Of a stretch of DNA of 64,000 bases, positions 40,150 through 61,532 are shown piece after piece (position 1 is the stretch's first letter; each line of letters begins with the position of its first letter). The notes below the pieces were generated by a model. The model did no database searches and was not told the DNA's origin. It saw nothing but the letters and a program-made list of their open reading frames with translations. The position numbers and the translations under genes were made by a program. The stretch lies in contig CAVRAL010000004.1 in NCBI GenBank assembly GCA_963719085.1, positions 800,001 through 864,000 of the forward strand. The letters run 5' to 3'. The stretch comes from a candidate division FCPU426 bacterium. Lineage in GTDB: Bacteria; Oederibacteriota; Muellerivitia; Muellerivitales; Muellerivitaceae.

Positions 40150-42024
40150 ATGCCGTCACCGACCATTACCGAATCTTCCGCCGGGTTGACCCTGGAGGAG
40201 TTTTTAAAACGCTATCCCTGGCCCGACGAGTGGCTTCAAAAGGGAAAGCCCATGCATTTTTTTTGGAAGTTCGACCTTCCGGTCTCCGTCGAAAAACTTT
40301 GGCCGCACCTGACCGACCTGTCTACCTTCAACCGCCGGGTGGGATTGGGCGCCATGCGTTTCACGGAAAAAAACGGCAAGCTCCAGGGCTTCGCGGTGAA
40401 TGTGGGAACCCGCATGGTCTGGGAAGAAGTTCCCTGGGAATGGGAATACGGGAAAGAATTCAGCCACGCCCGCGTGTACAGCGAGGGGCTTCCTTACTAT
40501 ATGAGGGCCCGTTATCTTTTTGAGCCGACCCAGTCCGGCCATTGCCGCTTGACGGTTTATCTATCCTGGATTCCCCGGGGATTTAAGGCCAAGCTTCTCA
40601 TTAACATCGGCTTAAAACAAATCCGCAAGGGCTATGAAAAGGCCCTGAAAGAAATCGTCCAATCGATCCAAACGGACGCCATCCTTCGCCCGCCGCCCGC
40701 GCCCATCAAGCTGACCGCCGATGGAAAAGAGCGTTTGAAAAATATGGCGAAGGGTTTGACCGAAAAAGGCCTGTCCGCCGGTTTGGCCGAGCGCTTGGTT
40801 CAATATGTGGAGACCGCCTCCGACGATGATATTTACCGCATCCGGGTCAAACCCCTGGCCCGGGAATGGAATATTCCCGAGCGGGAAGTTTTGACCGGCT
40901 TTCTTTGGGGAACCCGCCAAGGACTTTTCAAACTCACCTGGGACGTCATCTGCCCCCATTGCCGGGGCGTGCGCAATGAGGTGAGCACCCTGGGTGAACT
41001 CCCGAAGCGCGGAAGTTGTGAGGCCTGCCAGGTTAACTTTGACGCCACCACCTTCAACGCCCTGGAAGTCACTTTCCACGCGCACCCTTCGGTGCGGGTG
41101 GTGGAAAAACAAGTGTTTTGCGCCGCCGAGCCCGGCAAAAAGCCCCATATCAAGATGCAAAAGACCCTGAAGCCGGAAGATCAGTTAAGTTTGGGAACGC
41201 TGTTGGGTTCGGGCCGCTACCGTCTTCGCATCATTGGAAAAGACATTTATAACCTGTTGGATGTGGACGCCCAAGCCCAGGGCACCGAAGTGAAATGGGA
41301 TGATTCGCTCAGCCAGCAAAACCTCAAAAGCGCCTACTTTCCGACTTTGCTCCTCAAAAACAACGCGGGCCAAGCCAATACTTTTATTTTGGAAGAAAGC
41401 CAAATCGACCAGGACACCTTAAGACCGGTGGACCTGTTTAACTTCCAAAATTTCAGGGATCTTTTCTCGCAGGAAGCCCTGGCGTCCGATCTCAAATTAG
41501 AAATCGGCGTCCAGACCATTCTGTTTACCGATCTGGTGGGTTCTACCAAGTTTTACGAGGTTGAGGGCGACACGGTGGCCTTTACGGAGGTGAAAGAGCA
41601 TTTCAACAAGGCTTACGCCACGGTCTTGAAGCATGACGGCGTCATTGTGAAGACCATCGGCGACGCGGTCATGGCGGCTTTCGCCCACCAGGTTGACGCG
41701 GTGAAGGCGGCCATCGAGCTTCAGCGCTTTTTCAACGACAAAAACCCCGCCACCCGCCTGCGTTTACGGGTGACGCTTAACACCGGTTCCTGCCTGGCGG
41801 TGAACCTGAACAGCAATATCGATTATTTCGGGAATACGGTGAACTTGGCGGCCAAGATCCAGTCGATGGCCGGCGCGGGCGAGATCGCCTTCACCGAAAA
41901 CGTGCTCAACGATCCCGAGCTTCAAAAGCTGATCCAAGACGAGAATATACATTTGGAAAAGCTGGAGTTTGAGATGAAGTGGGCGAAGCGCACGATCCCG
42001 CTTTATCGTCTGAGGGTGGGGTAA
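40150..42024 (+). CDS. Class III adenylate/guanylate cyclase with SRPBCC-like and Cys-rich (DUF5939-like) N-terminal domains
   Basis: CPHC...CEAC; LFTDLVGST, KTIGDAVMA and DYFGNTVNLAA. Confidence 0.9.
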   Translation: MPSPTITESSAGLTLEEFLKRYPWPDEWLQKGKPMHFFWKFDLPVSVEKLWPHLTDLSTFNRRVGLGAMRFTEKNGKLQGFAVNVGTRMVWEEVPWEWEYGKEFSHARVYSEGLPYYMRARYLFEPTQSGHCRLTVYLSWIPRGFKAKLLINIGLKQIRKGYEKALKEIVQSIQTDAILRPPPAPIKLTADGKERLKNMAKGLTEKGLSAGLAERLVQYVETASDDDIYRIRVKPLAREWNIPEREVLTGFLWGTRQGLFKLTWDVICPHCRGVRNEVSTLGELPKRGSCEACQVNFDATTFNALEVTFHAHPSVRVVEKQVFCAAEPGKKPHIKMQKTLKPEDQLSLGTLLGSGRYRLRIIGKDIYNLLDVDAQAQGTEVKWDDSLSQQNLKSAYFPTLLLKNNAGQANTFILEESQIDQDTLRPVDLFNFQNFRDLFSQEALASDLKLEIGVQTILFTDLVGSTKFYEVEGDTVAFTEVKEHFNKAYATVLKHDGVIVKTIGDAVMAAFAHQVDAVKAAIELQRFFNDKNPATRLRLRVTLNTGSCLAVNLNSNIDYFGNTVNLAAKIQSMAGAGEIAFTENVLNDPELQKLIQDENIHLEKLEFEMKWAKRTIPLYRLRVG

Positions 42025-48400: not shown

Positions 48401-48580
48401 CCTGATTTCAGGCTAACTATGCGGGACAGTGCCGCCCCCGTTAATTTTTTTATGGGGGGCGTTGAAATAGGTTTTGTTGGAATTATTTTGATGTGCGGGA
48501 TTGTCTATTTTCAAATAAGGTTCATGTTAGAATGCCCCGCCGAAAATCAAAGGACCCTTAATTTTATGGAGGATGGATCG

Positions 48581-50023
48581 ATGACAGCCACAACACAAGT
48601 GAAACAAGCCGATTTTGGCATCTTTGGAATCGCCGTCATGGGCGCGAACTTGGCCATGAACATTGAGGACCACGGTTTCACCGTGGCGGTCGTCAATTTG
48701 CGCAGTGACCGGGTGACGCCTTTTATGAAGATGAACGAGGGCAAAAAATTTATCGGCGCCCACACGCTGGAAGATTTCGTCAATTCGCTCAAGACCCCCC
48801 GCCGCATCATGCTGATGGTGAAGGCCGGCGACCCGGTGGATGACGCCATTAAAATCCTCAAGCCCCTCCTGTCCAAGGGCGACATCATCATCGACGGCGG
48901 AAATTCTTGGTTCAAGGATACCCAGCGCCGCGAGGCGGAGTTGACCCAGGAAGGTTTTTATTTCTTCGGCGCTGGCGTGTCGGGCGGCGAGGAAGGCGCC
49001 CGTTTCGGCCCCTCCATCATGCCCGGCGGCAGCGAGAAGGCTTATGAGTTCGTGAAGCCGATCTTCGAGGCCATCTCGGCCAAGACCAACTCGGGTCCTT
49101 GCGTGACCCATTGCGGTCCCGACGGCGCGGGTCATTTCGTGAAGATGGTGCACAATGGAATTGAATACGGCGACATGCAGCTCATCGCCGAAGCCTATGA
49201 CATTCTGCGCAAAGTGCTGGGCCTGGGCGCCGCCGAACTGGCGGACATTTTCGCGGAGTGGAACAAAGGCATCCTGGATTCCTTCCTCGTCGAGCTCACC
49301 GCCAAGGTTTTGACCGTCATCGACGACGAGACGAAAAAACCGCTGGTCGATTTGGTCCTGGACAAAGCGGGCCAAAAGGGAACGGGCAAGTGGACGGCCC
49401 AAATCGCCCTCGACATGGGCGTTCTGATCCCGACCATCGTGGCCTCTTTGGACGGCCGCGGCATGTCCAGCATCAAGGACGAACGCGTGGCGGCTTCCAA
49501 GCAGATCAAAGCGGTTCCCATCACCTACAACAAGGCCGAGAAGCAGGCCCTCATCGACGCGGTGCGGGACGCCTTGTACGATTCCAAAGTTTGTTCCTAC
49601 ACCCAGGGTATGCGCCTGATCAAGGCGGCCTCCGACGAGTACAAATGGAACGTCAATTTGGGCGAGATGGCGCGCATCTGGAAGGGGGGCTGCATCATCC
49701 GGGCCCGTTTGCTCGACGAAATCATGAAGGCTTACGGACGTAACGCTTCGCTTCCGTCCCTGCTGTTGGACGATTCATTCAAGAAACAGATTGAGTCCAC
49801 CCAGGGCAACTGGCGTAAGGCCATCGCCATCGCGGTGACCAATGGAATCCCGACGCCGGCCATGAGCGCCAGCTTGGCTTACTACGACGCTTACCGCACG
49901 GCGGACCTGCCGCAAAACCTGACCCAGGCCCAGCGCGACGCCTTTGGTTCGCACACGTATGAGCGCGTGGATCATTTGGAAAAGGGCTTTATCCACAGCG
50001 AGTGGCTCAAGAACGCGAAGTAA
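48581..50023 (+). CDS. gnd: 6-phosphogluconate dehydrogenase, decarboxylating
   Basis: GIAVMG.NLA.N, GVSGGEEGA, KMVHNGIEY, QKGTG and QAQRD.FG.HTY; RBS GGAGG. Confidence 0.98.
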   Translation: MTATTQVKQADFGIFGIAVMGANLAMNIEDHGFTVAVVNLRSDRVTPFMKMNEGKKFIGAHTLEDFVNSLKTPRRIMLMVKAGDPVDDAIKILKPLLSKGDIIIDGGNSWFKDTQRREAELTQEGFYFFGAGVSGGEEGARFGPSIMPGGSEKAYEFVKPIFEAISAKTNSGPCVTHCGPDGAGHFVKMVHNGIEYGDMQLIAEAYDILRKVLGLGAAELADIFAEWNKGILDSFLVELTAKVLTVIDDETKKPLVDLVLDKAGQKGTGKWTAQIALDMGVLIPTIVASLDGRGMSSIKDERVAASKQIKAVPITYNKAEKQALIDAVRDALYDSKVCSYTQGMRLIKAASDEYKWNVNLGEMARIWKGGCIIRARLLDEIMKAYGRNASLPSLLLDDSFKKQIESTQGNWRKAIAIAVTNGIPTPAMSASLAYYDAYRTADLPQNLTQAQRDAFGSHTYERVDHLEKGFIHSEWLKNAK

Positions 50024-50105
50024 GACGAAGGAAACTTTGGGCAGGGGGAAACCGTCTAACGGGCTGTGGTAATTTTGGTATAGATGTTCATTTAAGGAGG
50101 ATGGC

Positions 50106-50687
50106 ATGAAATTCAAGGTTTTGTTGGCCGGGTTTCTGTTGACGGTTTTGGGGATTGGTTCGGCTTCGGCCCAAGAGGTTCATTTGGGATTGGAAGGGGG
50201 GGCTAATTTCTCCAATTTCATTGGAAGTGACACGAGTTCAGCCGGAAGTTACAAGCTCGGATTCGTGGGCGGGGGCTTCTTGGAATTGAATTTGATCAAG
50301 GACTTCGCCATTCGTCCTGAAATCCTCTATGAGCAGAAGGGGGAGCATTTCGCCCAGTATTCAGAGTCAACCGTTGATGATTATATTGAGCTGCCGATAT
50401 TATTGAAGCTGTCCCTCGGCGCTCCCGGATTTAACCCCGCGATCTTGCTCGGCCCCGCTTTTAGTTTAAACACACTCTCTCAACGAGTAACCGACAGCGG
50501 TAGCGTCGTTCAAACTTTCAGTGATGTCAGCGCGCTCGATATCGCGGTGGTCGGCGGCGTGCAAGTGGATATAGACAAGTTTTTCGTCAGCGGCCGTTAT
50601 GAACTTGGATTATCCAGCATCGACACAGAGGGCGACGACGCCCACAACGGAACCTTCACCTTCTTGGTTGGTTATACCTTTATCTAA
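50106..50687 (+). CDS. Porin-family outer-membrane beta-barrel, copy A
   Basis: Signal peptide, G..GGANF, PEILYEQKG, YIELPILLK, RYELGL and a terminal aromatic residue. Confidence 0.85.
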   Translation: MKFKVLLAGFLLTVLGIGSASAQEVHLGLEGGANFSNFIGSDTSSAGSYKLGFVGGGFLELNLIKDFAIRPEILYEQKGEHFAQYSESTVDDYIELPILLKLSLGAPGFNPAILLGPAFSLNTLSQRVTDSGSVVQTFSDVSALDIAVVGGVQVDIDKFFVSGRYELGLSSIDTEGDDAHNGTFTFLVGYTFI

Positions 50688-50705
50688 CCGATTTTTTAGG
50701 ACATC

Positions 50706-50742
50706 AGGTCCAAGAACGCGCTCGCGTTCTTGGACCTTTTTT
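50706..50742 (+). terminator. Rho-independent terminator
   Basis: AGGTCCAAGAACGC/GCGTTCTTGGACCT followed by a T-run. Confidence 0.85.
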
Positions 50743-50851
50743 GTTTATGCCTCCCGTGGATTATGGGGATAGTGGGGCTTGCCGTGATGGACGCTTTTCC
50801 CAAGGCCGGGAGCCCGGACGCTCGAATTACAATCCTTGCGGGTTCTTTCCA
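50737..50851 (+). pseudogene. Duplicated nuoL-like upstream region and first codons (copy of 51702-51815; start ATG reads ACG)
   Basis: Six differences over about 115 nt against 51702-51815. Confidence 0.92.
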
Positions 50852-50928
50852 GTTCGCGTCCGTATGAGCGGATTGATCACTTGGAAAAGGGATTTATCCA
50901 CAGCGAGCGGCTCAAAAACGCCGAGTAA
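50852..50928 (+). pseudogene. gnd: Orphan 3' end of a gnd allele (counterpart of 49947-50023)
   Basis: 65 of 77 nt identical; encodes SRPYERIDHLEKGFIHSERLKNAE* versus SHTYERVDHLEKGFIHSEWLKNAK*. Confidence 0.92.
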
Positions 50929-51065
50929 GCCGCGTTTTAGCGACCCCGAACCGGGAAGTAAAACGATGGTCCTCGATTTAACCCGGGGTTTTTGAACCGA
51001 AAGCCCCGGCCAATCGTCAAAACAGGTAGAAGCCAAAGAAATTAATGGGTGAAAGGGAGGTGTTT

Positions 51066-51656
51066 ATGCGATTAAAAGCGATTTGGATGGGGTTGGTCTT
51101 AACGATGGCAGGCTTAGCTCCGACGGTTTGGGCGCAGGGTATTCCGGCGCCGCCTTTCCAGCTGGGTTTGGAAGCGGGCGCGAATTTCGCCAATCTCATT
51201 GGATCCGATGTTAGCTCCATTACCAGCGACAACGCCAACCGCCTGGGCTTCGTCGGCGGCGGTTATTTGTCCTTGAACCTGTCTCCCAGTTTCGCGATCC
51301 GCCCCGAGGTGCTTTATGAGCAAAAGGGAGTGGCCATTTCGGGCTCCAGCACTTCCGACGAGCTGGATTATATTGAGGTTCCCGTGCTCTTGAAGATCGG
51401 TTTGGGCACCCCAATTATTAATCCCAATATCCTGATCGGACCGGCCTTTTCTTGGAATACGCTGGCGAAGGCTTCCAACGGCTCGAGCATCAGCGGCATC
51501 AACTCGTCGGATGTGGGATTGGTCGGAGGCGTGGAACTGGACATCGACAAATTTAATGTTTCGGGCCGCTATGAGCTGGGCTTGGACAACATCCAGAAAA
51601 ACACCAACGTTCAAAACGGCACCTTCACCTTCTTGGTCGGCTTTTCTTTCCTGTAA
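51066..51656 (+). CDS. Porin-family outer-membrane beta-barrel, copy B
   Basis: Same motifs as copy A; RBS GGAGG. Confidence 0.87.
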   Translation: MRLKAIWMGLVLTMAGLAPTVWAQGIPAPPFQLGLEAGANFANLIGSDVSSITSDNANRLGFVGGGYLSLNLSPSFAIRPEVLYEQKGVAISGSSTSDELDYIEVPVLLKIGLGTPIINPNILIGPAFSWNTLAKASNGSSISGINSSDVGLVGGVELDIDKFNVSGRYELGLDNIQKNTNVQNGTFTFLVGFSFL

Positions 51657-51673
51657 TTTCGAAGCGAAACGAG

Positions 51674-51707
51674 ATCCCAGGGGGCTCAATGCCCCCTGGG
51701 ATTTTTT
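51674..51707 (+). terminator. Rho-independent terminator
   Basis: ATCCCAGGGGG/CCCCCTGGGAT followed by a T-run. Confidence 0.85.
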
Positions 51708-51781
51708 GTTTATGCCTCCCGCAGATTATGGGATAGTGGGGCTTGCCGTGATGGACGCTCTTCCCAAGGCCGGGAGCCCGG

Positions 51782-53737
51782 ATGCTCGAATTACAATCCT
51801 TGCAGGTTCTTTCCACCGTGAATTGCGGATGGCTTTGGATGATCGCCGGCGTGCCCCTATTGGGCGCCTTGGTGAACGCCTTTTTGGCTTTACGGCCCCA
51901 TCCCTCGAACTCCGCGGCCTTGAGCGGCGCCATCGCTTTGACCGGGTCCGGGCTTTCTTTTTTCCTGTCTTTCCTGGCCTTTCTTGTTTTTAAAAACCTG
52001 CCGGATAACACGGTTCTTTTCCAAAATTTGTTGGATTGGATGGATGTCTCCCACCTGCGATTCGCCGTGGGATTTCAATTGGACGATTTGTCCCTGGTCA
52101 TGGTTCTTTTCATCACTTGGATCGCCGGATGGATCCACCTTTACGCCGTGGGGAGCCTCAAACACGAGCCGGGTCTGGGCCGGTATTTGGCCTGCTTGAA
52201 CCTGCTTCTTTTTTTCATGTTGGTTTTGGTCATGGCCGACGGCCTGCTGTTGTTGTTTTTAGGATGGGTGGGAGTGGGTTTTTGCGCGGTCTTTCTGATC
52301 GGATTCGGTTCGCCCAAGGCGGCCCAGAAGGCCCTGGCGATCCACCGCGTCAGCGACGGGGCCTTCCTGATCGGCTTGACGCTGGTGGTGGCCCTCACCG
52401 GAACGCTTAATTTCAACGACCTGGAAACCTTGCGCCAGGACTTTCATGAGGGAACCGCCACCCTTATTTGCCTTTGTTTCCTCGCGGCGGCTTTGGGCAA
52501 GTCGGCCCAGTTTCCCCTGTCCACCTGGCTGGCGGACTCCTCCTTGGGGCCCGTGCCGGGCATCGGGCTTCTTTACGCCGTCACCTTGGGGACCACGGGG
52601 GTTTATCTCATCGCCCGGCTTCATTTTATTTTCGTTTTGGCGCCCTGGGCCACCACGGTCATGGCCTTGGCTGGAATGGTCACGGCTTTGGGCGGTATTT
52701 TTTTGGCGTCGGCGCAAACCCAGCTCAAAAAAATATTGGCCTATTCCACCGTCTCCCAATTGGGTTTGATGTTTTTGGGGCTGGGCGTGAGCGCCTACAC
52801 CGCGGGGCTTTTTCATTTGATCACCCACGGCTTTTTTAAGACCGTTCTTTTCCTGGCCGCGGGTTCCGTCATCGGGATGCTGAAGGGCGAGCAGGACATC
52901 CGCAAGATGGGCGGGCTTTTAAAAAAAATGCCGCTGACCAGTCTGGCTTTTTTATTGGCCTGGCTTTCGGCGTGCGGCCTTCCGCCCTTCTCGGGCTTTT
53001 TCAGCGAGAACGAGATTTTGTGGCGGGCCTTGGCCACGCCCAATCCCTTGATTCCCTGGCTTCCGGAGGTGCTTTATGGCGCCGGACTCTTGGTGGCCGG
53101 TTTGACGGCTTACGCGCTCACCCGGATGCTCGCCCTGGCTTTTTTCGGCTCGGAGAAAATCGAGCGGGACCCGGGGGAGCATTTCAATGATTCCCCGCTG
53201 GTCATGACGGTGCCCCTGTTGATTCTGGCCTTGATTTCACTGGGGATTGGATGGATCGGCCTTCCGGAGGCCATCGGCGGCGGCGCCCATCTGGACCGAT
53301 TCCTCGATTCCACCTTCCGTCTTTCCACGCTGGAGTCCAACGGCATCGCGGGCAATTGGCAGCCCATCCTCATGCTGGTTTTCTTGGCGGTGGTTTTGCT
53401 GGGAGTGGGCGTGGCTTGGACTTTTTTCCGTCCCCGGCACAAACGTTCCCCGGCGTTTTTTCATTGGATGGAGCAGGCCGGCAAGGCCGAGGAGCCCTGG
53501 TTTGGGCTGGACGATTTTTACGAGAAGACCCTGATGGGCGGTTTGCGCCGGGCGGCCTATTGGGTCTGCCAGCGGTTGATCGACGAGATTTTGCTCGAGT
53601 CGCTCACGCGTCTGCTGGGCCGCGCCGCCGCCGGCTGGGTCCGGGCCTTGAAAAAAAGCCGCGTTGGCTGGGCGCAATTTTATTTTGTTTATGTTTTCAT
53701 CGGCGCGTCATTGTTGGTTTATTTCGCCTTTCATTAA
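51782..53737 (+). CDS. NuoL-like antiporter subunit, orphan and degenerate
   Basis: GKSAQFPL..WL, KKILAYSTVSQLG, FHLITHGFFK and EQDIRKMGGL. Confidence 0.9.
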   Translation: MLELQSLQVLSTVNCGWLWMIAGVPLLGALVNAFLALRPHPSNSAALSGAIALTGSGLSFFLSFLAFLVFKNLPDNTVLFQNLLDWMDVSHLRFAVGFQLDDLSLVMVLFITWIAGWIHLYAVGSLKHEPGLGRYLACLNLLLFFMLVLVMADGLLLLFLGWVGVGFCAVFLIGFGSPKAAQKALAIHRVSDGAFLIGLTLVVALTGTLNFNDLETLRQDFHEGTATLICLCFLAAALGKSAQFPLSTWLADSSLGPVPGIGLLYAVTLGTTGVYLIARLHFIFVLAPWATTVMALAGMVTALGGIFLASAQTQLKKILAYSTVSQLGLMFLGLGVSAYTAGLFHLITHGFFKTVLFLAAGSVIGMLKGEQDIRKMGGLLKKMPLTSLAFLLAWLSACGLPPFSGFFSENEILWRALATPNPLIPWLPEVLYGAGLLVAGLTAYALTRMLALAFFGSEKIERDPGEHFNDSPLVMTVPLLILALISLGIGWIGLPEAIGGGAHLDRFLDSTFRLSTLESNGIAGNWQPILMLVFLAVVLLGVGVAWTFFRPRHKRSPAFFHWMEQAGKAEEPWFGLDDFYEKTLMGGLRRAAYWVCQRLIDEILLESLTRLLGRAAAGWVRALKKSRVGWAQFYFVYVFIGASLLVYFAFH

Positions 53738-53758
53738 TTTTTTAGCCGGGAGCTATCC

Positions 53759-55270
53759 GTGACTCTTTCGTGGATTTTGGGGCTGCCTTTGGTCGGCGCC
53801 CTGCTTATATTTTTGTCGCCCCGCGCCAAAAGCGGCTGGTGGCTCGCGCTGGGTGTGGCACTGGCGACTTTTTTGTTGTCCCTCAAGTTTTATCTCAACT
53901 TCGATGCTTTTGACGGCGGGTTTCAGTTCGCCGAAAAGCTGGATTTGGGCGCCTGGCTGGGCTTTCACGACAATCTGGGGTTGGACGGGATTTCCTTAGG
54001 ATTCGTCCTGCTCACCACCTTTTTGACGCCGCTGGGCGTGGCCGCGGATTTGGAAAACCGGCGGGGCCGGGACAAGGGCTTTTACGCCTGCCTGCTTATT
54101 TTGGAGTCCGCCGCGCTTTGCGCCTTCGCCGCTGATGATTTATTTTTGTTTTTCCTTTCTTGGGAGAGCGTTTTGGTGGTTCTTTTTTATCTGTTCCGTT
54201 TTTTTGGCGCCGCGCGCCGGGTTCCCGCCGTGTTTCAATTTGTTTTTTTCACGATGGGGGCGTCGCTGCTTCTGCTTTTCGGGCTTTTGATGCTGGTCCA
54301 ACACACCCATACCTTTGGCTACTTTGAGATTTTCGACCAGACCCTGCCGGATGATCTTCAATTTTGGTGTTTTTTGGCGCTCACGGCCGCCTTTTTGATC
54401 CAGATCCCGGTCCCGCCTTTTCACGGCTGGATGTCGGACCTTTACGCCGAGGCCCCCTTGGGGGGGGCGTTGTTCTTGACCGCGCTTTTTTCCTCCTTGG
54501 GGGTTTACGGGTTGGTGCGCTACTCCATCCCCCTTTTTCCCTACGCCGCCAAAGCCTTCGCGCCCGTGTTTCTGCTTTTAGGACTGGCCGTGATCATCTA
54601 TGGAAGCCTCCGCGCCGCGCTCCAGACCGATCCCAAACGCCTGGCGGCGTCTTTCGGCTTGTCCCAATCGGGCTGGATACTTTTAGGCTTTTTTAGTTTT
54701 TCCATGACCGGTTTCCAAGGCGCGCTGCTTTTGATGCTGGCGCTGGCGGTTTCCCTGGCGTTTTTTTTCGTGGTGCTGGGCATGGTATTGAGGCGGCGGG
54801 AAAGCCGGGAGCTGGATCGGTTCGGCGGATGGCTTTTAAGGACGCCCCGGCTGGCCTTGGCTTTTTTAGGCGCGCTTTTGAGTCTGGCCGCGGTGCCGGG
54901 TTCGGGGGAATTCAGCGGAATTTTTTTAATTTTGATTTCAGTTTATAAGGCCTCGCCGCTTTTAGGGCTATTGGCGGCGGGCACCTTTATTTTCTCGGCT
55001 TGGTCGCTGATTCTTTTGTTCCAGAAAATCTTCCTGGGCGCTTCCGGCCCGGCCAAACACCCGGCGAAGATCGACGACCTTTCATTGCGGGAGGGGTTTT
55101 TGCTTCTGCCTTTTCTCGCGGTCATCCTTTGGATCGGCGTCAGCCCGAATAGTTTGCTGCAGCCCATGGAAAAAACCGTCCAACTCAACGTTTTACAGAG
55201 GCTGAACACCCTGCCGGTGATGACCGACTTCGCGGCGTACCAGCGCATGCTTCAGGGACAAAAACACTAG
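53759..55270 (+). CDS. NuoM-like antiporter subunit, orphan and degenerate
   Basis: LGLDGIS, DLFLFF..WE, P.HGW....AEAP and DL..RE...L.P; GTG start after GGAG. Confidence 0.88.
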   Translation: MTLSWILGLPLVGALLIFLSPRAKSGWWLALGVALATFLLSLKFYLNFDAFDGGFQFAEKLDLGAWLGFHDNLGLDGISLGFVLLTTFLTPLGVAADLENRRGRDKGFYACLLILESAALCAFAADDLFLFFLSWESVLVVLFYLFRFFGAARRVPAVFQFVFFTMGASLLLLFGLLMLVQHTHTFGYFEIFDQTLPDDLQFWCFLALTAAFLIQIPVPPFHGWMSDLYAEAPLGGALFLTALFSSLGVYGLVRYSIPLFPYAAKAFAPVFLLLGLAVIIYGSLRAALQTDPKRLAASFGLSQSGWILLGFFSFSMTGFQGALLLMLALAVSLAFFFVVLGMVLRRRESRELDRFGGWLLRTPRLALAFLGALLSLAAVPGSGEFSGIFLILISVYKASPLLGLLAAGTFIFSAWSLILLFQKIFLGASGPAKHPAKIDDLSLREGFLLLPFLAVILWIGVSPNSLLQPMEKTVQLNVLQRLNTLPVMTDFAAYQRMLQGQKH

Positions 55271-55323
55271 AAAGCGCCTCAAAGCCCGTTTTAAAATGAA
55301 CGGACCTTTTTACGGAGGGAACA

Positions 55324-55890
55324 ATGGCGAAAGTCGATTTGGATGAGCTGGGACCCCTTGAGAATCTGGTGGGGACTTTCAAAGGGACCAAGGGCGACGA
55401 TACCGCCCCCTCGGATGACCGCGGCACGGAGAAAAACCCCTACCATGAGGTGATTGTTTTTACGCATATCCTGCCCGCCGTCAACCACGAGCAGACGCTT
55501 TACGGCCTCCGGTACCACCAGCAGGTCTTCCGCCACAACGAGGAATTTTCTTTTCATGACCAAGTGGGATACTGGCACTGGGATCCCAAGGCGAAGCTGG
55601 TGATGCAGTCGCTGACCATCGCGCGGGGGATGGCGGCGCTGGCGGGCGGCCCGGCGCGGAGCGGCTCCAAATCGTTCAAATTAAAAGCGCAGCTGGGTTC
55701 CAAGACCTTCGGAATCGCCTCCAACCCATTTTTGGATAAGGAATTCCAGACGGTGGCGTACTCGATTCAAATCGCTTTTTTGGATGAGGACACTTTCACC
55801 TACGATCAAACGACCAAAATTCATATCAAGGGACAGCCGAAAATTTTCGAGCACCGGGACAAGAACACGTTAAAACGGGTGAAGGTTTGA
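55324..55890 (+). CDS. Nitrobindin/DUF1794-like heme-binding beta-barrel
   Basis: LGPL..LVG...G.KG.D.AP, LYGLRY, FHDQVGYW.W and F.H.D.NTL.R. Confidence 0.82.
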   Translation: MAKVDLDELGPLENLVGTFKGTKGDDTAPSDDRGTEKNPYHEVIVFTHILPAVNHEQTLYGLRYHQQVFRHNEEFSFHDQVGYWHWDPKAKLVMQSLTIARGMAALAGGPARSGSKSFKLKAQLGSKTFGIASNPFLDKEFQTVAYSIQIAFLDEDTFTYDQTTKIHIKGQPKIFEHRDKNTLKRVKV

Positions 55891-55922
55891 AAAGACTTCC
55901 AGGCTAAATCAAAACATGATTT

Positions 55923-56036
55923 ACCGCCAAGACGCCAAGAAACCAAAACGAGATGATTTAGTTCTTAATGTGTGCCAAAAATCGTAAACAATTATTTTCT
56001 ATGGTCTTAGTTTTTCTTGGCGAACTTGGCGTCTTG
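55923..56036. repeat. CGCCAAG-based palindromic element, family D
   Basis: Perfect 12-bp inverted repeat CAAGACGCCAAG (55928-55939) / CTTGGCGTCTTG (56025-56036) around an AT-rich loop. Confidence 0.8.
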
Positions 56037-56125
56037 CGCCGCCCCCCTTTGAAAATAATAACGAGGGCCGTATGTCCCGCTTGGTTGGCCCGGGAAGGGC
56101 CAGCGGAGCGGTGAAATGGTTTGGA

Positions 56126-58040: not shown

Positions 58041-58937
58041 ATGAACCGATCCATCTTTGTGCTTTTGTTAATGGCTTTCGCCGCCATGCCCCTGGCTTGT
58101 GACTGCGGCAAGATGGATCCCACGGACCCGACCGGCAATAGCGGCACCCTCACCGCCCCCGCGACCACTTCCGGCACTGTGACGCCGCTTCCGACGTCGA
58201 CTGAAACCAATACGCCCACCATCACCCAAACGCCGACGGCCACCACCACGCTCACCCCCGAACCGACCCACACCTTCACCGCCACGATGACCTTCACTAA
58301 AACTTCAACTCCGACAGTCACCTGGACCTACACGCCCTCCAACACGCCCACAATTACGCCAACGGTCACTCCGACCTTTACGCCCACGACTACCCCGACC
58401 AAGACACCAACCTTAACGCCCACTTCAACGCCGACGAGCACACCCACCACTACCCCGACAGCTTGCGCGAACACGACTCCCGTTGGGAATATGACCAACA
58501 ACGCCCAAGTTGGAAGTATTCCGGCAAATCACATTACGCTAATGGAAGTAGCTGTTGCCGGAAGTGGATTGGCGCAGGTGTTGGATGTGAAATTCGGGGT
58601 TCAAACAGCTGCTTCGCCCAATCCTCAAGTTTATGTTGGGATTTATGGGGACAGCGGTGGTTCGCCATCAACACTAGTTGCGAGTAGTGACCTCAGCTCT
58701 TATGGAACCGGAATCAATACTGTTTCATTTTCTCCCCGGGTCTATTTGGCGCCTGGGAATTATTGGATCGGTCTTTCGCCTACGGCAAGTATTCCCGATT
58801 TGCTTTTCTTAAGCACGAATCCGGGGCCATCGGTCGCTTATTCAACCGGGGCCGGACCCACTTTACCGTCTACCCTTGCGACCCCGACTGGCTCGGTTCC
58901 GGATGCGATGCAAATTTGGTTGGAATATTGTCAGTAG
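58041..58937 (+). CDS. Lipoprotein with a Thr/Pro-rich stalk and a C-terminal beta-rich domain
   Basis: Lipobox PLAC; about 105 aa of TPT repeats; GIYGDSGGSP...L.PGNYWIG. Confidence 0.85.
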   Translation: MNRSIFVLLLMAFAAMPLACDCGKMDPTDPTGNSGTLTAPATTSGTVTPLPTSTETNTPTITQTPTATTTLTPEPTHTFTATMTFTKTSTPTVTWTYTPSNTPTITPTVTPTFTPTTTPTKTPTLTPTSTPTSTPTTTPTACANTTPVGNMTNNAQVGSIPANHITLMEVAVAGSGLAQVLDVKFGVQTAASPNPQVYVGIYGDSGGSPSTLVASSDLSSYGTGINTVSFSPRVYLAPGNYWIGLSPTASIPDLLFLSTNPGPSVAYSTGAGPTLPSTLATPTGSVPDAMQIWLEYCQ

Positions 58938-58940
58938 AGA

Positions 58941-60410
58941 TTAGTTAAAGCGGTAGGAAGCGGCGATGTGGGTTCGGTATAAATCACCGTAAGCACTTGG
59001 ATCATTCACGACCGAAGGCTGATCCCACGAGACGCCCAAGTCCAAACTTAAATTTTTATCCTGATAACCGATGCCAGCTAGGATGGTCGTGCTGATGATT
59101 TCCTGTCCCGGATGGACGGGAAAATAAAAATCGTCCTCGTCCACGGTGCCCGTGTTGTTTTGGTCCTCGACAATGACCCCCATGCGAAAAGCCCAGCTTT
59201 TAGACAGGTTTCGTTCTCCGCCGATTGATATTTTGTAGTCGAAATAATTGTTGTTCGCGGTGACAGCGGAAGAGTTGCTTTGAGTTCCCGTGACTCCGGA
59301 TAATGCGGCTTGGACACCAAGGGTAAAATCTTGCGGAGCTTCCACGCCTAGCCCCAAGATGCCTGTCCAGCCTGTCACATTAAAGCCCCCATTAGGATTT
59401 TCAGTTGAATCAAATGTATTCTCAGTTTGATTCTCAATCGTGAAATCACCGCCAGTTTTTAAATTGATTCCGGTCGAAAGAGGGCTTGTCATCTTAAAGA
59501 CCGCGGTGCCCTCGGAAATGTTCTCGTTGCCAAGGTTAAAATTGGCGACATTGGGTATCGAAGTGGCATCAGTGGAGTCTTGATGAAATCCCAGGTTCCA
59601 GGTGACAAAGCGTCCAGTTAATCCAGCCTCGAATTTCCCCGGGCTGTCAAAGTAGATTTCAGGACCCCAAAGTAAAAGATTGTTGGTTGTAATTGTTTGA
59701 GTCACGGTGAAATTAGTCGAAAGTAAACTGTTGAAAGCTTGTAAGTTTTTTATTTCATCGAATTGGCCCAACTGTGTCCCCGCGATTCCCCCGATTCGAA
59801 GATGATCTTGATTCGGGTTCGACGCCCCTAGCAAGTTGATCAACAGGCCGCCGGTTCCTTCTAAGTTGTTATTGGTGCCGCTACCGGAAGTGATTTGATT
59901 GTTCACATTAAACTGATAGGGGCTGATGGTTAGGTTGGTTTGCTCAGGTTGAATTTCGGCGCCCAAGGTGAAGATGCCGAAGTTATAGGCCATTCGGCCC
60001 AATTCGCGGGTGCGGTCATTGGTGGCGATATGATCTCCCGAGTCGTTTTGGCCTTCAGTGTGCAAGGTGTCCCCGTCGGCTTGTAGGGCCCAGTTGGGGT
60101 TTAAAAAAGCAATAAGCCCGTGGTACTTCGTCACGTCATCGTTGAATTGACTCATGCTTCCATAAATGTGGAAAAGACCGTCCGAGGGGGAAGCGTCTTT
60201 GGCCCATTCGGCGGCCGCGTCAAAACGGGTTTGGGGAGTTAACAACGCGAGACCCGCGGGGTTTCCCAAGGTGAAGGGGTTAACCGCGACCGACTCGTCC
60301 GTGATAACAAGGGAAAGGTCACCGGTCGAATCGACCCGTGTGTCGGAGGCGTGGCTGGGGCTTTGGGAAAGAAGGAGTATGGAAATTGCCCAAAGCAGAG
60401 CTTTTTTCAT
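58941..60410 (-). CDS. Putative outer-membrane beta-barrel protein
   Basis: Signal peptide SHA|, GNPAGL, alternating beta-strand patterns and C-terminal ASYRFN. Confidence 0.72.
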   Translation of the reverse strand: MKKALLWAISILLLSQSPSHASDTRVDSTGDLSLVITDESVAVNPFTLGNPAGLALLTPQTRFDAAAEWAKDASPSDGLFHIYGSMSQFNDDVTKYHGLIAFLNPNWALQADGDTLHTEGQNDSGDHIATNDRTRELGRMAYNFGIFTLGAEIQPEQTNLTISPYQFNVNNQITSGSGTNNNLEGTGGLLINLLGASNPNQDHLRIGGIAGTQLGQFDEIKNLQAFNSLLSTNFTVTQTITTNNLLLWGPEIYFDSPGKFEAGLTGRFVTWNLGFHQDSTDATSIPNVANFNLGNENISEGTAVFKMTSPLSTGINLKTGGDFTIENQTENTFDSTENPNGGFNVTGWTGILGLGVEAPQDFTLGVQAALSGVTGTQSNSSAVTANNNYFDYKISIGGERNLSKSWAFRMGVIVEDQNNTGTVDEDDFYFPVHPGQEIISTTILAGIGYQDKNLSLDLGVSWDQPSVVNDPSAYGDLYRTHIAASYRFN

Positions 60411-60569
60411 CGGTTTACCCTAAGACGGAATTGGGGTGAGTATAGCATGGGCCCGCGGGCTTGCTTTCAAAAATGGGCTGGTTCCAGTCTCCCGATTCAA
60501 GGCCTGGGAAGGTATAATTTATCCTCAATTGGAAAGCTGTTACTTATATATAAAGAAAAGGGCGAAGAC

Positions 60570-61532
60570 ATGAAAAAGTTTTTTCCGGCGATTCTGGGTT
60601 TAGTTTTAGCGGTTGCGACAGGAGCCCCCTTGTGGGCGCAAGATGGAACCCCCGTGCCTGCGCCGCCGGACTTGGGTGGAACCGCGCCGCCCTCCATGCC
60701 GGATTTAAGCGCGATCGAGCTTCCGCCCCTGCCCGCCTCCAGCCCCGCGGTGGCCGCGCCCACGACCAGCATTGAGGAAGCCCCGATTCCACAGCCCTCG
60801 GTGAAAATGACGCCAACCCCTGTCCCGGCCGTGATGGCCCCTCCGCCTCCGCCGCTGCCAACTCCCACCGTGAAAGTGAATGCGCCTGTCCCGACGGCGG
60901 TTCCGACTAAAGTTCTTCCGCCTCCGCCCGCTCCGGCGCCCCCGAGTGAGTCTTCAGCGGCTCCAGCCGCTTCCGTGCCCGCCGCCGCGACGGGCGGTAT
61001 CGGGGATTATTTTCCTTGGACCCAAGGTCAAAGGTTGAATTATGAATATTTAAAACCCGCCGCGGGCTCGACGGTGAAAAAGACCCGGGTGGTGGAATGT
61101 TTGGAAGACACGACCATGCCCAACGGCACGGTTCACTTCACTTTAAAAACCACCGAGGGCGCCCAAGTGGTTCAGGATAAATACTCGCTTCTGGACAACC
61201 GGGTGGAGCATACCTTCGCGGGCAAGATGGCTTTGACCGGACACACCATCCTTGAATTGCCGGCGGGCGGGCAGTCGCTGGAGTGGCAGTTAAAGGGCGG
61301 CGATGGATTAACCCACGCTTATAAGGCTTTTTTCGGCAAGGCCCAGGTTTATCAGAAGGTTTATCCTGATTGCGTGATCGTCATCGATAAGGGGCTTCAA
61401 GGGACCAAGCCGGTTTCCACCCGCATCGACTATTACGCCAAGGGGATCGGTTTGGTGGCGGTGGAGAGCTACGCGCCCGGGATGAAGCTGGTCCAAACCG
61501 AATCGCTGGCTTTGGTGGAATCTGGCCAATAA
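60570..61532 (+). CDS. Secreted protein with a Pro-rich region and a YFP...YYAKGIGLV beta domain
   Basis: Signal peptide LWA|Q; DYFP...G....Y and YYAKGIGLV. Confidence 0.78.
   Translation: MKKFFPAILGLVLAVATGAPLWAQDGTPVPAPPDLGGTAPPSMPDLSAIELPPLPASSPAVAAPTTSIEEAPIPQPSVKMTPTPVPAVMAPPPPPLPTPTVKVNAPVPTAVPTKVLPPPPAPAPPSESSAAPAASVPAAATGGIGDYFPWTQGQRLNYEYLKPAAGSTVKKTRVVECLEDTTMPNGTVHFTLKTTEGAQVVQDKYSLLDNRVEHTFAGKMALTGHTILELPAGGQSLEWQLKGGDGLTHAYKAFFGKAQVYQKVYPDCVIVIDKGLQGTKPVSTRIDYYAKGIGLVAVESYAPGMKLVQTESLALVESGQ

Follow-up and report, generated by a model that had tools for sequence, protein, structure and literature searches.

The window analysed here, a 64,000-nucleotide stretch of contig CAVRAL010000004.1 (positions 800,001 to 864,000, forward strand) from a candidate division FCPU426 bacterium, carries an adjacent pair of genes for homologs of NuoL and NuoM, two antiporter-like membrane subunits of complex I. 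The genome of the window (G000) has a size of 3.04 Mb and is 99% complete. Both open reading frames are full length, as the first-pass annotation had stated, and the pair is a real, conserved, de-charged remnant. De-charged variants are marked with an asterisk (L* and M* for this pair; D*, C* and B* for the Mrp-like proteins described below). The two genes are as follows.

51782..53737, + strand: nuoL* (L*), 651 amino acids (aa), full-length NuoL including the lateral helix and transmembrane helix 16 (TM16).
53759..55270, + strand: nuoM* (M*), 503 aa, full-length 14-helix NuoM with a conserved C-terminal tail.

NuoL* scores 475.6 bits against the NCBIfam model TIGR01974 (NuoL, cut-off 407.5) and NuoM* scores 361.6 bits against TIGR01972 (NuoM, cut-off 263.8); both scores are below the cut-offs of the stricter equivalog models. 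The AlphaFold model of NuoM* has a predicted local distance difference test score (pLDDT) of 88.4 and a TM-score of 0.93 to NuoM/ND4 chains. The model of NuoL* has a pLDDT of 82.8, and its fold matches NuoL chains. A GTG at 51818 was considered as an alternative start of nuoL* and rejected, the N-terminus from the ATG at 51782 being conserved across the L* clade. The stretch encoding the E144V and H254Y changes of L* is present without difference in public run X1, which may be the source sample and is therefore not independent, and is covered only in patches in public runs X2 and X3.

Residue numbering follows E. coli K-12, and the alignments were made to the actual K-12 sequences of NuoL, NuoM and NuoN. 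All nine motif changes listed in the first-pass annotation are in register. They correspond to Q215 (K234), Y229 (H248), S246 (K265), Q303 (H322), L329 (H348) and I388 (E407) in NuoM* and to V163 (E144), Y265 (H254) and E409 (K399) in NuoL*. The M* clade consists of five clusters (P0001-P0004 and the partial P0013) among the best 120 of 1657 NuoM homologs, the set that was examined. K234 and K265 are lost in all five clusters, and H322, H348 and E407 also in the four full-length ones; these five residues are present in all 115 of the other matches. The polar replacements K265S (5/5) and H322Q (4/4) are fixed, while those at H348 and E407 vary. E144, H241 and R273 are kept in every cluster. The Tyr at H248, which the first-pass annotation had counted with the axis loss, is found in 16 of the 115 otherwise intact homologs, and is a family trait outside that loss.

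Of the residues expected in a proton-pumping NuoM (TM5 Glu, TM7 Lys, TM8 Lys, the His relay and TM12 Glu), M* retains E144 only. The first-pass annotation had allowed that a proper alignment might restore the Lys and Glu residues at shifted positions, and none was found to do so. The sole candidate, an acidic residue four positions before E407, is not conserved (E384 in the window, Asp in two others, and Val in G001, the only other genome of this genus). No new conserved ionisable residue has been gained mid-membrane in M*.

The L* clade consists of six clusters (P0121-P0126, of which P0124 almost matches the L* of G001 and is counted once), found among the best 120 of 414 NuoL matches. T247, H254, K399 and D400 are lost in all six, with mixed replacements, and among the other 114 matches H254 is kept in 113 (with one gap) and K399 in 113. 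H100, R175, D178, K229, Q232 and E359 are kept throughout the clade, and H338 and K342 are lost in two clusters. The E144 change is genuine in the window copy but is not a trait of the clade, as Val occurs in two clusters only (the window protein and P0122) and E144 is kept in the other four. The window L* keeps R175, D178, K229, H334, H338, K342 and E359; of the proton-pumping NuoL set it has D178, K229 and K342 and lacks E144, H254, K399 and D400. Describing the pair as stripped of the charged axis is therefore correct for NuoM*, with five axis residues gone, but not for NuoL*, where R175, D178 and K229 remain. Judged from these alignments, almost the whole axis is gone in M* and roughly half of it in L*.

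Pumping by L*M* has very probably been lost. In E. coli, mutation of K234 in NuoM, K229 in NuoL or the TM5 Glu of either subunit abolished function and did not uncouple it (PMC3046159), and K265, H322, E407, K399 and D400 form the relay and the exit (PMC9271201). Pumping is unlikely for both of these reasons.

The pair is nevertheless under purifying selection. With a pairwise codon model, the dN/dS ratio (omega) is 0.129 for L* and 0.079, 0.093 and 0.128 for three pairs of M*, and twice the log-likelihood difference (2dL) to omega=1 is 210-308. The dS values are 1.3-2.2, and several control genes have saturated dS and hence unreliable omega. Twelve intact within-genus comparisons give omega of 0.034-0.079. 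A value of 1 is rejected for every region of the pair that was tested (2dL 23-117), and omega is 0.12 for the lateral helix plus TM16. Residues 1-96 of M* are 77% identical and its tail 93%. The reading frames are open in six L* and four full-length M* clusters at 56-84% identity; the many frameshifts of contig L090 are read as putative sequencing errors. The signs of a pseudogene (dN/dS near 1, stops, frameshifts) are thus not seen in nuoL* or nuoM*, and the decay that the first-pass annotation considered is not indicated by dN/dS of 0.08-0.13. The genes are relaxed about twofold and are not decaying.

The origin of the pair, which the first-pass annotation did not address, can be traced through relatives. 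Orthologs of L* and M* at 40-49% identity are present in most genomes of the family, and in all 16 of the non-genus genomes fetched they have intact residues and are located in a nuo operon with nuoF, nuoG and nuoN. The gene order is gnd-OMP-nuoA...nuoN in four relatives (OMP, outer membrane protein) and gnd-OMP-nuoL-nuoM at the equivalent site in G000 and G001. A nuoF gene was found in 27 of the 30 other family genomes, the misses being G001 and two genomes that are 63-66% complete. In FastTree trees, M* and L* nest inside the family clade, each on a long stem, and P0126 branches off first within L*; the grouping of G025 with M* is probably long-branch attraction. The partial P0013 and L033 were left out of the M tree, and the frameshifted L090 out of the residue counts. 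The region upstream of nuoA in relatives contains two TGTGA..TCACA boxes (G002/G018), which we take to be CRP-like, and a TATAAT in 3/3; it is absent in the genus. Since relatives carry the full operon at this site, the trees nest the pair in their clade and the nuoA upstream region is missing, the pair is evidently what remains of a 14-subunit nuoA-N operon after two deletions, of nuoA-K and of nuoN. The features that surround it are as follows.

48419..51656, + strand: gnd and OMP beta-barrel gene(s), the left synteny anchor, directly followed by nuoA...N in the four relatives.
50737..50932, + strand: second copy of the nuoL* leader with its initial codons, fused to duplicated sequence from the gnd 3' end; ACG takes the place of the ATG in this copy.
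51657..51781, + strand: short leader, with a terminator-like hairpin at 51671-51705 and then about 76 nt to the ATG; it marks the left deletion (promoter region and nuoA-K).
55271..56125, no strand: site of nuoN in relatives, where a nitrobindin-like gene (THAP4 heme-binding) now stands at 55324-55890.

A tandem duplication at 49947-51815 (gnd 3' end, OMP barrel gene and nuoL* leader) has doubled the OMP gene in G000. The nitrobindin-like gene was considered as a partner of L*M* and rejected, since G001, L089 and L090 do not have it in this position. Elsewhere in the window, three open reading frames without a Pfam match at 58041-61532 are conserved in G001 (a Thr/Pro-rich lipoprotein, a 489-aa possible barrel and a Pro-rich protein), and a 624-aa open reading frame at 40150-42024 resembles, as judged by eye, an adenylate/guanylate cyclase that is extended at the N-terminus and has a segment rich in cysteine.

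The first-pass annotation saw no other nuo or mrp gene nearby. This holds within the window; elsewhere the genome contains both a nuo operon and a remnant of mrpB, mrpC and mrpD. The single nuo operon of G000 (A-B-C-D-H-I-J-K-L-M-N, C1:656038-666093) encodes a complex I, but one of the 11-subunit type, and the nuoE, nuoF and nuoG genes of a 14-subunit complex are not found in G000. The genome also encodes a bd oxidase and two heme-copper oxidases; Rnf/Nqr and FeFe hydrogenase gave no match in it. Two adjacent NDH-2-like open reading frames at G000:C4:591582-594233, which match E. coli Ndh with E values of 7e-31 and 3e-27, may stand in for the lost NADH module. Most genomes of the family (L034-L051) have two complex I operons, of 14 and 11 subunits, which belong to different lineages. 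The 14-subunit operon encodes a short NuoG (about 540 aa).

The changes in L* and M* lead away from the L and M residues of the host 11-subunit complex. At the 100 changed sites of M* the new residue matches the 11-subunit type at 20 and the old one at 39, and at the 104 changed sites of L* the corresponding numbers are 10 and 47. A TM5-TM6 motif common to both types of NuoM is rewritten in M*. The working NuoM of the host (G000:C1:663017-664627, in L001) has changes of its own: its TM7 Lys is missing family-wide, and in this genus the TM8 His is replaced by Asn and the H348 equivalent by Gln. The host NuoN keeps K395, and its changes show no clustering in its far half. The rate tests left out NuoN of G018 and G004 and NuoM of G019.

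A search of G000 with PF00361 finds six genes: the three subunits of the operon, L*, M* and an MrpD-like gene (D*) at C4:647943-648806, which is preceded by MrpC-like (C*) and MrpB/MbhE-like (B*) genes. This second de-charged cassette was also absent from the first-pass annotation.

G000:C4:647676-650106 (L057:9677-12107), - strand: mrpB*-mrpC*-mrpD* cassette, with MrpB/MbhE-like, MrpC-like and MrpD-like genes.

The matches of D*, C* and B* to Mrp models are far below the curated cut-offs. A full MrpA-G set is not seen, as G000 has no MrpA among the six PF00361 genes and mrpE and mrpG were not found there (mrpF was not searched for). D* is present in 26 of the 31 family genomes and in none of 68 other genomes of the phylum (E<=1e-30). 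The cassette is a three-gene unit in varied surroundings, often divergent from a gene for a membrane protein of about 710 aa. All 31 of the 31 D* rows (alignment A3, without the split D* of G042) have a gap in the TM7 Lys column, Arg at K247 (TM8 Lys) and a retained K395; canonical MrpD keeps all three in 28/28 matches. Read by eye, the MrpC/NuoK Glu column holds Gln in the 26 rows of C*. Periplasmic motifs and the C-terminal tail of the cassette proteins are conserved. D* H305Q is not a loss, with Gln at this position in 28/28 canonical MrpD. Descent of B*C*D* from the C28 operon of G017 was rejected; that operon looks like one of membrane-bound hydrogenase (MBH) type and shows weak similarity. 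That MBH-type, Mrp-linked hydrogenase operon (L126:3474-13497) is located in a basal family genome without D*. By the equivalences NuoN=MrpD, NuoK=MrpC and NuoJ=MrpA C-part (PMC7419157), B*C*D* would stand for NuoJ, NuoK and NuoN, membrane subunits missing beside L*M*.

L*, M* and D* share a pattern of conservation. Topology was assigned by hand, from the AlphaFold helices for L* and M* and by homology for D*, with the N-terminus taken as outside and the basic loops placed inside. Identities were compared with those of intact 14-subunit NuoL and NuoM (L14, M14) and of MrpD at matched overall identity. In all three, unlike the intact proteins, the predicted periplasmic loops are the best-kept class. 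In L* their identity is high (0.85, against 0.76 for the transmembrane (TM) parts; 0.61 and 0.80 in the intact protein; matched by 3 of 649 circular shifts). The values for M* are 0.75 and 0.71 (0.68 and 0.73 when intact; 14 of 499 shifts), and the predicted periplasmic loops of D* have 0.70-0.73 compared to 0.41 in MrpD (0 of 480 and 6 of 479 shifts). Between G000 and G001, the loops and TM parts of L* are 0.82 and 0.76 identical, and those of the working NuoL 0.62 and 0.88.

Removal of the axis under continued purifying selection implies a second, non-pumping job for NuoL and NuoM. The proposal of a repurposed, non-pumping membrane module is supported by the alignments, the low dN/dS and the complex I elsewhere in the genome, and among the three forms that the first-pass annotation gave it (a scaffold, swap-in subunits that uncouple complex I, or a transporter of another solute) the scaffold has the best support. 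Our preferred explanation, held tentatively and at somewhat less than even confidence, is that L*M* is a structural, non-pumping module that docks on D*C*B*, forming a membrane arm without a redox module whose working surface is the predicted periplasmic face. NuoL* and NuoM* would have been selectively kept after deletion of the 14-subunit operon, with the proton axis broken and pumping lost; docking on MrpD*-MrpC*-MrpB* would produce the arm, and the arm would bind a putative periplasmic or membrane partner through that face. The NuoL and NuoM of the family may already have held this second job with D*C*B* before the deletion, and exactly L and M would have survived because of it, N, K and J being deletable as they were duplicated by D*, C* and B*.

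A structural role probably needs a third subunit in the NuoN position; the constrained lateral helix, which spans two subunits, TM16, E144 of M* and the M* hairpin point to one. Such hairpins contact the C-terminal helix of the neighbouring subunit. On the periplasmic side, beta-hairpins link neighbouring subunits (PMC7419157). That the third subunit is MrpD* rather than the NuoN of the 11-subunit complex appears slightly better than even. D* would explain the surviving gene set, the conservation signature is shared, and K395 of D* and E144 of M*, positions that face each other across this interface (PMC9271201, PMC7419157), are kept on both sides. D* is favoured also because L* and M* did not converge on 11-subunit residues and because NuoL can replace MrpA, rescuing an mrpA deletion in B. 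subtilis (PMC4938563). The complete five-subunit chimera NuoL*-NuoM*-MrpD*-MrpC*-MrpB*, with the proton wire off in every large subunit and exapted as a periplasm-facing scaffold, is rather doubtful.

Several observations weigh against this explanation. In intact pairs from within a genus, the periplasmic parts are 0.74-0.95 (L) and 0.74-0.92 (M) identical. Because these values are similar to the loop identities of L* and M*, the loop constraint is kept, not raised, while the interior is relaxed, and it could reflect contacts between L and M alone. The host NuoM is accelerated in the genus, with 81 derived changes at conserved sites compared to 21 in NuoL and 28 in NuoN, which points towards the 11-subunit complex. 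Some 200 kb separate L*M* from mrpB*C*D*, the two were not neighbours in any locus examined, and G004 (80% complete) and G041 (66%) carry D*, yet a 14-subunit NuoL was not found in them. Genus-specific changes in D* cluster in its far half, but by a post hoc test (p=0.002 for two sequences, as one of 18 tests, and p of about 0.03 for eight), and they cannot be polarised. The L*M*-D* pairing itself is a predicted binding, inferred from sequence comparison.

The main alternative uses the same two subunits in a working enzyme: L*M* would be a swap-in distal module that replaces NuoL and NuoM on the host 11-subunit NuoN, giving a braked isoform or one of lower proton output, as with the interchangeable NdhD/NdhF pairs of cyanobacteria. 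The 11-subunit core is available in G000, cyanobacteria equip their 11-subunit complexes with differing L/M/N sets (PMC3144371), NdhF3 has non-polar residues instead of lateral-channel charges (PMC6981117), and in Yarrowia the stoichiometry fell by half when the distal module was lost (PMC3160332). The normal length of the L* lateral helix, K395 of the host NuoN and the fast change of the host NuoM, with its lost TM8 His and H348 equivalent, would also fit. The different lineage of L*/M*, their divergence from the host L/M residues, the rewritten TM5-TM6 motif and the lack of clustered changes in the far half of the host NuoN weaken it, as does the inactivity, rather than uncoupling, of the E. 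coli axis mutants (PMC3046159); we regard it as unlikely. Slow decay of functionless leftovers would account for an omega about twice that of intact pairs, for the missing ancestral promoter region and for single lineages still losing further axis residues. It is very improbable, given the rejection of omega=1 in all regions tested and frames that stayed open in six L* and four full-length M* clusters while the other 12 genes were deleted.

Two further readings retain a transport function. As an MrpA-like half-channel (R175/D178/K229, E359 and mostly E144), NuoL* might allow leakage or slow antiport of Na+ or H+. The first four residues are in all six L* clusters and E144 in four, NuoL rescues the mrpA deletion (PMC4938563), and D* keeps K395 and has Arg at K247. 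This is quite unlikely with the exit pair K399/D400 and H254 lost in 6/6 clusters, H338 and K342 lost in two, no relay axis in M* and no mrpE or mrpG found in G000. Distinctly unlikely is the passive passage of a neutral solute (CO2, for example) through the de-charged lateral cavity, with L*M*, joined or not by D*C*B*, serving as channel or carrier. NdhF3 would be a precedent (PMC6981117), and the fold is intact with fixed polar replacements at K265 and H322, but the TM and cytoplasmic parts are the relaxed ones and the replacements at K399, H348 and E407 vary. No CupA-, CupB- or DabA-like partner lies beside nuoL*/nuoM*, which are flanked by gnd and by genes for OMP barrel, nitrobindin-like and hydrolase proteins (the genome was not searched for CupA). 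The more general suggestion of a transporter of another solute finds little support, with mixed replacements at the lost sites and nothing ionisable gained mid-membrane in M*.

The charged axis of antiporter-like subunits has been treated as invariant; here 12 of the 14 operon genes are deleted, and two pump subunits remain under purifying selection without the axis. A conserved, de-charged orphan NuoL-NuoM pair was not found described in the open-access literature (subscription papers are outside this coverage). The proteins are natural variants that separate structure from pumping, with residues that stay without proton movement (E144 in M*, K395 in D*, D178 and K229 in L*), and they offer a direct test case for the natural co-assembly of Nuo with Mrp subunits. 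If the scaffold explanation is true, such a pseudo-arm would represent a non-bioenergetic job of the complex I membrane arm, already done on the side by the ordinary NuoL and NuoM of the family; a swap-in module would instead be a gear-shift or brake isoform outside cyanobacteria. The members are annotated as ordinary NuoL, NuoM or MrpD wherever the source names them, and therefore metabolic reconstructions overcount pumps in this group.

Among known systems, the closest in descent is the distal NuoL/NuoM module of 14-subunit complex I (E. coli 3RKO; Paracoccus 8QBY). The family models, the fold and the gene order are the same, and the pair descends directly from nuoA-N. In comparison, K234, K265, H322, H348 and E407 of M and H254, K399 and D400 of L are lost here, and the cognate nuoA-K and nuoN are deleted. 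The 2M complex I of Chadwick et al. (2018) is said to have a second nuoM in the operon and a lengthened lateral helix. It shares with the present case an extra NuoM in the genome, but the extra subunits here are outside the operon and de-charged. A four-module, 2M-like arm was rejected, as the lateral helix is not lengthened (103 residues in L* and 102 in the host NuoL, compared to 102 in E. coli). The membrane module of the Mrp antiporter (MrpA-D-C-B) and of MBH resembles D*, C* and B*, which are MrpD-, MrpC- and MrpB/MbhE-like, and NuoL can take the place of MrpA (PMC4938563). It differs in that no MrpA, MrpE or MrpG was found here, in D* the TM7 Lys is missing and the TM8 Lys is replaced by Arg, and C* is without the Glu. 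The pairs NdhD3/NdhF3 and NdhD4/NdhF4 of cyanobacterial NDH-1 are likewise separate M and L subunits beside an 11-subunit core, and NdhF3 has lost its lateral-channel charges (PMC6981117). L* and M* are not paralogs of the L and M of the core with a matching interface, being of a different lineage and without convergence. NdhD3 is still a proton channel, with CupA attached, whereas here the M subunit is the more stripped of the two, and the pair and the core come from different lineages.

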